This document shows positions 41,162-43,693 of a stretch of 64,000 nt of DNA, in pieces. The stretch is from Waddliaceae bacterium. Lineage in GTDB: Bacteria > Chlamydiota > Chlamydiia > Chlamydiales > SLFE01. The translations under genes were made by a program, and so were the position numbers. The notes beneath the pieces are model-generated. The model was given only the letters and a program-made list of their open reading frames with translations. It was not told the DNA's origin and did no database searches. Position 1 is the stretch's first letter, and every line of letters begins with the position of its first letter. The stretch lies in contig CAWAPJ010000005.1 of assembly GCA_963783885.1 (NCBI GenBank), forward strand, positions 15,574-79,573, read 5' to 3'.

Positions 41162-43693
41162 TCAGGTATACATGTGGGGAGGCGGGTCGTCTCCGTCTAC
41201 GTTTGGCTTGATGCTGTTATACGCTTCTAGGAAATCGTCGTTTGTAATTTTCCGATCAGGATGCTTTTCGACTTGCTCCATTGTGAGTTTAAGTTTAGCG
41301 AGTTTTCTCAGGCGCAATTTCGATGCTTTTTTGACAAGCCCTTTTAGATGGTCTCCGGAGAAATCCTTAGTGATAGCCGCGAATCGGTCAAGATCGATAT
41401 TATCTTCTATGACATCTTCTTCTTGCAGATCCTTGATATAGTATTCAAGGATCTTTCTCCTTCCCGTAGTATCCGGTAGAGGAAATTCGACTTTTTCACT
41501 AAAACGGCCCGGTCTTAAGAAAGCCTCGTCGATTCTATCTAGCTGGTTGGTTGTTCCAATCACAATGAGATTGTCCAGATCCTGAGCAGAACTCATTTCT
41601 TCAAGCAAAGTGTTTACCAGACTGGTTCTTGGAGAGCTTGTGGATTTGGAACGTTTTTCGCAAAGAGATTCGATCTCGTCAAAAATAACAATGAACCTTT
41701 GGTCTTTATGATTATGGGCATTATCAAAAAGAGCCTTAATATTTTTTTCGGTCTCTCCAACCCACTTACTGAGTATGTTGGCATGCTTGACTTTAACGAT
41801 ATTTGTTTTGGGTACATCAAGAAGTTCTCCAAGGGCATTGGCAAATGTTGTTTTTCCCGTTCCCGGAGCGCCATAGAGAAGAAGTCCATTGGGTGATTTG
41901 ATACCCATTTTTTTTGCTATTTCTCGCAATTCTCCCAAGGGAATCGCGATGAGTTCGAAAGCTTCGACGATTTTTTCTGGCAGGCCTGTCAAGCCGGCAT
42001 TTTCCAGTGTTTGGCGGGCATCGCCGTTTTTAAATCGTATCATTTTCGGCTTATTGTTCATCCAGATTTGATAGTTATCGTATTCGATAGCCAATTCAGT
42101 GTCAGAAGTCACTTTTCCAAGGTGGGGATAAATCGTTCCGTTATATCTGCTTGATTTGAATGCCATATCTTTGACTTTTACATCGATAAGCAGATCATTG
42201 CCTAAATCAACAGTAAATATTTGATTGAGGCATCTCTCTTTAGGAAGAAAGTCTCTGATTGCCTGCTTTAAGTCTTCCATGTCGACTTCGGTAAGCTCAA
42301 TGCCTTTCTGGGTTTTTTTAATCGAAACGTAAACAGACATTTTTTTTAGGGAATGTGTTTTCATATCGGGAATGAGATTTAGGTCGATACCGCTTTTCAA
42401 ATTGATAAAGATCCGCGTATCTTTGGACAATTCCCAATGCTTCATATTGACCGCATCGCGGTCTACGAGATTTACATGATCGATAGCAAAGACTTCTAAA
42501 TTCAGAAGATATCCCTTATATTCGAGAAAAAATTTCGTGTTTGCGGAAAAGAGGTCTATCCTTTCCCTTATTTTTTCTCCCACTTCGGAAACATCAATCC
42601 AATTATGGATGTTTTCCTGCATGGAATCAAAGCCGGGAAGAGCGTCAATCATGCAGATTCGAAATGTGACCCGCGTTGGCTTGAGGGGCTCTCCTCTTAC
42701 GCCGCATACATCCGCGTTATCAGAAATAAATGAGAGTTTAGCGTCCGGGGTTAGGCGGTAAGCTTTTGTATAGACAGCCTCTTTTTTTGAAAGTACAGTG
42801 GGCTTCTTGGGTAATAGGGTTTCTTTCAAAGTGACTTTTATATCGACGCCAGGAGTAATGGAGTATTCGACAAACATGCCCGGGACAAGCCACTTATCTC
42901 GCAGCGCGAGCCTCACTTCTTCCTCAAACTTTTCCACATTATAGATGAGAGGACGCATTGTATCAGGATAATTTTCAAGACCTGTTATCGAGACATCGAA
43001 TTTAAATGTTGGCTGTTTGGTAGTATTGATCCTTTCACTTAAAATGTAGGGGGCAGTTTCAACGCTTTCAAAAAATAATTCAGTTGTCGGCGTTATTGAA
43101 CTAAAATACGATTTTTTTTCTGGAGTTTGATGAGACTCGCCTGAATGAAATGTGGCGTAAAATTCGCGGTTGTTAAAATTGCAGTGAAGAACCTGTCCTT
43201 CCTTAAGGAAATGCCCCTCATAACGCTGATGGAAGTAGTTTTTAATCTCACTCACATCGAGGATGTTTTTACTGATTGATACGGTATCATCCTGACTTTG
43301 AGGTGAAATGATGAATTTTGCTTTCGTCAAGTCTCGCTGGCAGGATGGGACCTGCCGATAAGGAGTGATGAGGACGGTATCATCTTTATTGATGACAGTC
43401 GACACCTCTTCGAATTGGACGGGATTCAATCCGATTTCACCCGGTTTTATCCATGATTTTGCGACAATGCAATAAACACGATTTGCAATTCTAGCAAAAG
43501 CGGCATTACCACCGCTTTGCTCCGGAAAATATCGCTGCACATCTTTTGCATTCATCCAAACACAATTGGTTTCAGCAAGCTCTCCTTCATTCATTTTACG
43601 AATGACTGCGGTAAATTTGTCCGGATTACCGGAAAATGATTGATGATTTCTAGACAAATTTTTAGAATCGTTCAATGTGTTTATATTGTTCAT
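41162..43693 (-). CDS. NSF/Sec18-like AAA+ ATPase, single AAA module
   Basis: AGGAGGT SD; LAETNCVWMN N-domain start; GLLLYGAPGTGKT; SKWVGETE pore loop; IFDEIE; IDEAFLRPGRF; ends MYT. Confidence 0.85.
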   Translation of the reverse strand: MNNINTLNDSKNLSRNHQSFSGNPDKFTAVIRKMNEGELAETNCVWMNAKDVQRYFPEQSGGNAAFARIANRVYCIVAKSWIKPGEIGLNPVQFEEVSTVINKDDTVLITPYRQVPSCQRDLTKAKFIISPQSQDDTVSISKNILDVSEIKNYFHQRYEGHFLKEGQVLHCNFNNREFYATFHSGESHQTPEKKSYFSSITPTTELFFESVETAPYILSERINTTKQPTFKFDVSITGLENYPDTMRPLIYNVEKFEEEVRLALRDKWLVPGMFVEYSITPGVDIKVTLKETLLPKKPTVLSKKEAVYTKAYRLTPDAKLSFISDNADVCGVRGEPLKPTRVTFRICMIDALPGFDSMQENIHNWIDVSEVGEKIRERIDLFSANTKFFLEYKGYLLNLEVFAIDHVNLVDRDAVNMKHWELSKDTRIFINLKSGIDLNLIPDMKTHSLKKMSVYVSIKKTQKGIELTEVDMEDLKQAIRDFLPKERCLNQIFTVDLGNDLLIDVKVKDMAFKSSRYNGTIYPHLGKVTSDTELAIEYDNYQIWMNNKPKMIRFKNGDARQTLENAGLTGLPEKIVEAFELIAIPLGELREIAKKMGIKSPNGLLLYGAPGTGKTTFANALGELLDVPKTNIVKVKHANILSKWVGETEKNIKALFDNAHNHKDQRFIVIFDEIESLCEKRSKSTSSPRTSLVNTLLEEMSSAQDLDNLIVIGTTNQLDRIDEAFLRPGRFSEKVEFPLPDTTGRRKILEYYIKDLQEEDVIEDNIDLDRFAAITKDFSGDHLKGLVKKASKLRLRKLAKLKLTMEQVEKHPDRKITNDDFLEAYNSIKPNVDGDDPPPHMYT

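Follow-up and report, generated by a model that had tools for sequence, protein, structure and literature searches.

A Type 2 NSF-like ATPase of a Waddliaceae bacterium combines a tandem array of Nc subdomains with an HbYX tail that may dock on the host proteasome

NSF-like ATPases with only the first AAA domain (D1) were described in 2022 as "Type 2" proteins in giant viruses, together with five named chlamydial homologues (Khalifeh et al., PMC9546365); in its passages on the family, that report classes it as NSF-like and states that SNARE disassembly activity is unclear. Canonical (Type 1) NSF genes of giant viruses and Legionella santicrucis are likewise NSF genes in intracellular parasites of protists, but they keep the N-D1-D2 arrangement (PMC9546365). 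NSF binds SNAP via a positively charged N-domain and its hexamer needs D2 (PMC3646813), and its ability to pass substrates on to the proteasome has presumably been lost (PMC5070193). The AAA unfoldases PAN, Rpt, CDC48 and AMA dock on the 20S proteasome by an HbYX motif at their C-terminal end (PMC3493965); the motif fits into the alpha pockets of the 20S, and 7-mers by themselves activate it (PMC3493965; PMC5070193). Here, we analyzed a stretch of 64,000 nucleotides from a Waddliaceae bacterium (contig CAWAPJ010000005.1; the whole stretch is referred to as the window), in which an open reading frame (ORF) on the minus strand encodes an 843-amino-acid (aa) protein that an original prediction, made from the letters of the window, had read as an NSF/Sec18-like effector of host membrane traffic. 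We find that in this protein an NSF psi-barrel is followed by four Nc repeats (CDC48_2 type) and a single intact AAA domain of NSF type, and that the chain ends in an HbYX tail conserved among chlamydial and giant-virus members of its family. The explanation that we favor, with a probability of roughly 45%, is that of a host-directed, NSF-derived unfoldase that forms a single ring, docks its tails into the host 20S proteasome and feeds it chosen proteins. The features of the gene are as follows:

41162..43693, minus strand: whole ORF (P0001), Type 2 NSF-like AAA ATPase, 843 aa
43619..43693, minus strand: leader, residues 1-25, S/N/T-rich, predicted to be disordered, candidate type III secretion signal
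43352..43618, minus strand: double-psi barrel subdomain of NSF type, residues 26-114, without the conserved QR arginine of NSF (F94, E95, E96)
43052..43339, minus strand: Nc (CDC48_2-type) repeat 1, residues 119-214, 98.6 to NSF Nc
42710..43018, minus strand: Nc repeat 2, residues 226-328, 96.2 to NSF Nc
42380..42682, minus strand: Nc repeat 3, residues 338-438, 94.5 to NSF Nc
42056..42358, minus strand: Nc repeat 4, residues 446-546, 97.6 to NSF Nc
41207..42016, minus strand: single AAA module of NSF-D1 type, about residues 560-829, catalytic residues and aromatic pore loop intact
41165..41173, minus strand: C-terminal HbYX tripeptide M-Y-T, closing a short proline-rich tail

The 843-aa protein belongs to the named but uncharacterised Type 2 family: it has an NSF-type D1, is monophyletic with viral members (100/99, and 90/87 in a second row set) and has no canonical D2. 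Searches with it recovered two accessions named in PMC9546365, namely WP_013181706.1 (P0166) and NGX58268.1 (P0189); its N-region alone matches the locus of the former at E 4e-16, whereas the latter is 49% identical over D1 and joins the 843-aa protein in a 99/93 clade. The published description agrees with ours in the presence of D1 only and in homology spanning the N-region. It differs in that its passages on the family speak of a "conserved N-terminal region", leaving the Nc repeats, the HbYX tail, leaders resembling nuclear localization signals (NLS) and the second AAA domain as a D1 copy unmentioned, and in that NGX58268.1 has one AAA domain here and not two; a search of its supplement on three terms gave no match. 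The question of novelty raised by the original prediction is thereby answered in part: the family is already in print, and the Nc repeats, the lost N-domain arginine, the HbYX tail and the proteasome reading were not found in the literature searched. More specifically, the main text of the ProEnd paper mentions neither NSF nor chlamydiae, and its database would list such proteins (PMC11475706); the portions of PMC11915834 and PMC6050620 covered by the search do not treat a Type 2 NSF-like protein; no literature was found that joins HbYX, giant viruses and AAA proteins, most subscription papers lying outside the search; and a literature search on Mimivirus R476 found nothing relevant.

A Pfam scan of the 843-aa protein matched the AAA domain alone (residues 604-739), and a PDB sequence search with residues 1-552 returned nothing below E 0.67; thus, the repeats of the N-region are visible only by profile-profile and fold comparison. 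Using profiles built on an 88-row alignment, for which control pairs scored <9, we found that residues 26-114 match the NSF psi-barrel with a probability of 98.6, and that the four Nc segments match one another at 97.1-98.8 (6 of 6 pairs) and the NSF Nc subdomain at 94.5-98.6 (4 of 4), with lower values for archaeal Cdc48 Nc (51.5-93.7). Compared as a unit, the NSF N-domain (psi-barrel plus Nc) and the family N-region reached 99.8 across 175 columns in hhalign. The AlphaFold2 model (mean confidence, pLDDT, 88.4) shows the strand-helix-strands pattern in four copies, its top structural match is Sec18/NSF, and a model of repeats 2-4 alone first matched the NSF/Sec18 N-domain structures 1QDN and 1QCS (E 2e-4 to 1e-3). 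An NSF-like N-domain followed by further CDC48_2-type subdomains, four in all, had been proposed by eye, and these profile and fold matches bear that architecture out. With a pooled repeat profile, four repeats were detected in the 843-aa protein and in a Megavirus protein, seven in a Waddlia protein, and one in 113 of 120 NSFs; across 121 full-length members the number is four in 77, three in 30 and seven in 8, the seven-repeat form deriving from duplication of repeats 2-4. A profile of 12 N-regions matched 256 representatives at E 0.001 among 1.84 billion, and among the 150 matches listed, three of the weakest are eukaryotic NSF N-domains, one of which retrieved named NSF/Sec18 proteins. A separate ESM Atlas search with residues 226-546 gave leads of <0.9 (CDC48_2, CDC48_N and PEX-1N clusters), which we did not count as evidence.

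The AAA domain has the NSF-D1 character originally assigned to it, and the alignment of 88 members confirms its intact Walker motifs, W-V-G pore loop and arginine finger; as originally noted, the 843-aa protein has no D2. More specifically, K614 of Walker A, D672 and E673 of Walker B, the pore loop W644-V645-G646, N716, R727 and R730 are all present and near-invariant; the catalytic residues, arginine fingers and aromatic pore loop are retained in 81-88 of the 88 members, and the linker glycine ahead of D1 (G570) in 80. In a PDB comparison, whole-protein scores favored the two-domain proteins VAT and p97, whereas per domain NSF was best (170.7 bits in a single stretch versus 122 per VAT domain), and the family D1 profile gave a median of 320 bits for NSF D1 versus 233 for archaeal Cdc48. 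The phylogenetic check proposed for it was made with a quick tree of 85 rows and a mixture-model tree of 42 rows, in which the family AAA domain was sister to eukaryotic NSF D1 with 100/100 support (family 100/99, NSF 100/98), and not grouped with archaeal Cdc48, PAN or FtsH. A prokaryotic Cdc48 or FtsH origin was rejected by approximately unbiased (AU) tests on 26 rows (Cdc48 D2, p 2e-5; FtsH plus a PAN-like row, p 1e-5). The trees span one PAN-like row and were built without eukaryotic p97, Rpt and Pex1/6; single-protein scans of viral contigs with P0004, a PAN-like protein and an archaeal Cdc48 had yielded no usable rows from which p97 or Rpt could be added. Family D1 falls beside, and not within, the 10-18 sampled NSFs, among whose named rows there is no animal NSF; long branches may contribute to this placement, and NSF D1 is prone to such effects (PMC5070193). 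The second AAA domains of eight relatives group among the family D1s, and on this placement they are later D1 duplications and not NSF D2. Taken together, the profile and tree comparisons assign NSF ancestry to both the N-domain and the AAA domain. The family thus resembles NSF/Sec18 in its psi-barrel plus Nc N-domain and its D1, but differs in having four to seven Nc subdomains (one in NSF), no D2, a lost basic N-domain patch, a gained HbYX tail and a position outside the sampled NSF clade.

Among 1910 ORFs of the genome, only the 843-aa protein (M-Y-T) and a paralogue (M-Y-G) end in M-Y-X. To survey tails across the family, we took 153 rows and dropped 17 without an AAA domain and 18 with an incomplete last domain, leaving 118 with a complete last AAA domain; a strict HbYX tail closes 73 of these, 21 more end in Hb-F-X, and 24 end otherwise, many of them in Y-Hb-X. 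As background, the strict motif occurs in 25/1910 genome ORFs, 1/112 NSFs and 25/102 archaeal Cdc48 proteins, and the broad pattern of PMC3493965 occurs in 94/118 members versus 63/1910 genome ORFs, 2/112 NSFs and 31/102 archaeal Cdc48 proteins. The tail is retained at the new C-terminus in one-domain and two-domain forms alike, was verified in the genomes for 14 of 19 chlamydial loci read to the stop codon, is present in 6 of 6 distinct viral loci, and ends 22-27 residues after the last lid helix in 66 of 75 cases. PF00227, which covers 20S and HslV, had no match in any of 11 carrier genomes (the control rang in 10 of 14), so that a proteasome partner would be the host's. One family protein (P0057, residues 863-1055) carries, after the N-region and D1, a Lon S16 protease domain that replaces the tail (Lon_C, E 1.8e-35), with Ser957 and, at the spacing of the Lon Ser-Lys dyad, a lysine 43 residues on. 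A complex predicted for the C-terminal 32 residues and three alpha subunits of Thermoplasma, an archaeal stand-in, gave weak support (0.38 versus 0.00 for the best control; contacts agreed to at least 45%, and the partner had a pLDDT of at least 41). Of 157 solved complexes, 18 passed at this level (0.60 or under), as did the only 2 of 215 mismatches to pass at all, and the score of 0.38 may reflect memory of solved HbYX-20S structures. Like PAN/Rpt, VAT and AMA, the protein has a substrate-binding N-domain, an AAA unfoldase with an aromatic pore loop and a C-terminal HbYX (PMC3493965), and it would share a single ring with PAN and AMA, the ring being predicted by analogy; unlike in those systems, its AAA domain is of another lineage (AU p about 1e-5 to 2e-5) and its partner would be foreign, as no 20S/HslV gene was found in 11/11 carriers.

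A host-directed role, which the original prediction also assumed, is the likely setting, because the family is patchily distributed, is shared with giant viruses, and occurs here in a genome with the type III secretion gene sctV (903 bits over cut-off). Its patchiness is evident from 25 carriers among 400 genomes of the phylum, with 0 of 29 in a small-genome family (f4). The S/N-rich leader was correctly singled out as a candidate secretion signal: residues 1-21 are predicted to be disordered in the AlphaFold2 model, and the S+T+P+N share of 52% is matched by 0.8% of 905 genome ORFs. Within the first 55 residues, an NLS-like K[KR]x[KR] motif occurs in 44 of 121 members versus 7.6 in shuffled leaders and 9.3 in internal windows, and a bipartite NLS-like motif in 33 leaders of the 121 versus 3.3 in shuffles; the background is 71/905 genome ORFs and 1/120 NSFs. 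Under the explanation that we favor, the protein would be exported by the type III system via its disordered leader, and D1 alone would build the hexamer, as in PAN/Rpt. The amplified Nc array would pick substrates or adaptors, these substrates would be threaded through the W-V-G pore, and the HbYX tails would open the host 20S gate for hand-over; in about a third of members, the 843-aa copy excepted, the NLS-like leader may add nuclear import. A broader version extends this to a foreign proteasome cap common to chlamydial endosymbionts and giant viruses, i.e., an NSF-lineage motor that would have shed D2 and SNAP binding, selects substrates with its Nc array, has gained HbYX, and redirects host 20S (often nuclear) to degrade chosen host proteins without 19S or ubiquitin; we regard this extension as possible and put it forward tentatively.

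Several points weigh against the proteasome explanation. We infer export, hexamer assembly and 20S binding from sequence, and the fit of the underside of an NSF-type D1 ring to the alpha ring is presumed. No NLS-like motif is present in the leader of the 843-aa protein or of its nearest relatives, 24 of the 118 members lack even the broad tail motif, the two-domain forms carry the strict motif in only 5 of 17 cases, and family members are kin, so that the tail counts are not independent events. Moreover, p97 uses a tail of this type for PUB/PUL cofactors as well. The Lon fusion occurs in one of the family rows scanned, on a contig of 7,985 bases, and may be artefactual. HbYX spans three residues, and the majority of proteins that have it do not cap the proteasome: the motif occurs in 63/1484 Thermoplasma proteins (PMC3493965), and among human HbYX proteins at least 25% are reported as validated interactors (PMC11475706). 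Finally, no protein of ~134 kDa is among the 19 Waddlia proteins listed from the host cytosol in Table 1 of PMC7143554, a short list.

The target originally proposed was the SNARE machinery, with a secreted NSF mimic that would disassemble or jam host SNARE complexes via host SNAP and redirect membrane traffic. The NSF derivation of both N-domain and D1, the retained linker glycine and the NSF-like classification in PMC9546365, which nonetheless calls SNARE disassembly unclear, are in keeping with such a role. The N-domain surface argues otherwise: the position following the conserved glutamine, an arginine in NSF, holds K/R in 97/97 NSFs, compared with 17/88 family members, and in the 843-aa protein it is F94 followed by two glutamates; two places on, position 96 is D/E in 60/88 members, and zero of ten conserved basic NSF N-domain columns have a conserved family counterpart. 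We take this QR arginine to be a SNAP-contact residue. Three extra Nc domains lie between psi-barrel and D1, there is no NSF-type D2, and the genome search for mimics yielded no SNAP family match; blank SNARE and PUB searches, with silent controls, were uninformative. Such a mimic would also leave unexplained a tail foreign to NSF and the NLS-like leaders. (The passages of PMC6457932 on SNAP contact do not give NSF residue numbers.) We therefore retain the NSF ancestry and the amplified Nc array of the "eukaryote-derived, re-engineered disassembly machine" that had been envisaged, and consider SNARE disassembly by the 843-aa protein, and with it a role as NSF mimic, unlikely.

Two other host-directed roles would use the same tail. 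If it bound PUB/PUL cofactors of Cdc48/p97 (PNGase, UBXD1, PLAA/Doa1) instead of 20S, the protein would be a rival segregase in ubiquitin pathways, which every tail count fits equally well. The Cdc48 tail is a PUB/PUL ligand, F-box-like genes lie beside the gene at two related loci, and eukaryotic Cdc48 has a conserved HbYX at its tail (PMC5070193). A single ring with a short tail is, however, the PAN/Rpt architecture, and the Lon fusion points to a protease partner. The family tail is also Pro/Gly-rich, without the acidic run of the p97 tail, and altogether we find this role doubtful. The tail evidence would equally serve an antagonist that docks on host 20S and whose main effect is to displace the 19S cap or to rescue substrates, shielding bacterial or viral proteins, and evasion or negative regulation has been raised for viral HbYX proteins (PMC11475706). 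The catalytic residues, arginine fingers and pore loop retained in 81-88 of 88 members would be superfluous in a pure blocker, and the Lon fusion favors threading into a protease; such an antagonist is improbable. Least probable of all, to a degree that we would call slight, is an accessory chaperone or remodeller inside the bacterium, its tail being a relic or binding a bacterial partner. Export of a large, multidomain protein of 843 aa is itself an inference, and the host-cytosol list of PMC7143554 does not include the family protein, both of which suit this role; set against it are the patchy distribution (25/400), the lack of a partner gene conserved across families among 104 neighbour ORFs of 11 loci, the NLS-like leaders, the failure to find 20S/HslV in carriers, and an architecture and tail that are the same in giant viruses, which act solely in the eukaryotic cell.

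With regard to the family at large, a genome-collection scan returned 20 loci, 4 of them chlamydial and matching the whole query and 16 with short generic AAA matches, and is too insensitive to bound the family range. Viral rows form one clade (100/99) nested in chlamydial rows at 86/85, yet chlamydial monophyly is not rejected (p 0.198) and fits too, so that neither direction of a virus/chlamydia transfer is favored. Two viral-looking members (P0139 and P0145) carry an intein (Hom_end_hint) in the AAA domain near Walker A, P0145 with a homing endonuclease as well; P0094 has three AAA domains, and P0033 has a long (duplicated) N-region and two AAA domains. One locus (L130, G228:C1:2664617-2668564) is a broken family copy with stop codons within the match. 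In Waddlia-type loci (L017:9818-10961, L018:10275-12628 and L019:621-1883), the gene adjoins a dnaQ-like exonuclease gene and a YbjN/CesT-like chaperone gene, with an F-box-like gene in between in two of the three. In five mimiviral-type loci (L027, L161, L163-L165), it comes after a gene of ~545 aa, identified in L027 as asparagine synthase.

Within the window, the ORF at 41162-43693 has zero internal stops and is intact, and every motif quoted for it by the original prediction is present. The start at 43693 is backed by a same-genus orthologue (L116, 843 aa, identical start) and by P0003, and on these starts an upstream ATG at 43753 was rejected. The same-genus orthologue is 84% identical, with a dN/dS of 0.15 for the whole gene and 0.09-0.28 per domain, i.e., purifying selection, which says only that the protein is used. 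The source genome is 89% complete and the ten other carrier genomes are 90-99% complete. Both the C-terminal M-Y-T tail and a paralogue 14 kb away had been overlooked:

57614..60931, minus strand: paralogue P0015, about 1090-1105 aa, with the N-region of the 843-aa protein, D1 and a second AAA domain that is duplicated and degenerate; C-terminal M-Y-G

Two other genomes, G379 (same genus) and G395, also carry both paralogues. A large, divergently transcribed neighbour of the 843-aa gene (window 43988-47467) encodes 1159 aa with no Pfam match; a genome from another family has a homologue close to the family gene (L024:499-4383), perhaps marking an old locus. The region is flanked by two near-identical transposase pairs (window 34857-36065 and 48314-50280, the left copy split), and an ORF broken off at the end of the right copy (49555-50280) is of another type; from the look of the sequence we take these to be IS3-like and IS982-like, respectively. 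At window 38085-39200 (minus strand) lies a gene for a Legionella_OMP-type outer-membrane protein with a cysteine-rich N-terminus (PF05150, E 5e-25).

The earlier print record of the family, in the passages devoted to it, amounts to one paragraph on a divergent NSF of unknown activity, and the HbYX tail, the lost SNAP surface and the Lon fusion now make the question of that activity cheaply testable. If the proteasome explanation is wrong, the 843-aa protein is a further member of a described family whose anatomy has been clarified, including four to seven Nc subdomains in tandem, an arrangement that NSF, p97 and VAT do not show. If it is true, intracellular bacteria and mimiviruses would supply their own ATPase cap for the host proteasome, a form of host control unreported in the literature searched, and a lineage sister to NSF would show a proteasome-linked state that is absent from NSF itself, which bears on the origin of NSF from Cdc48.

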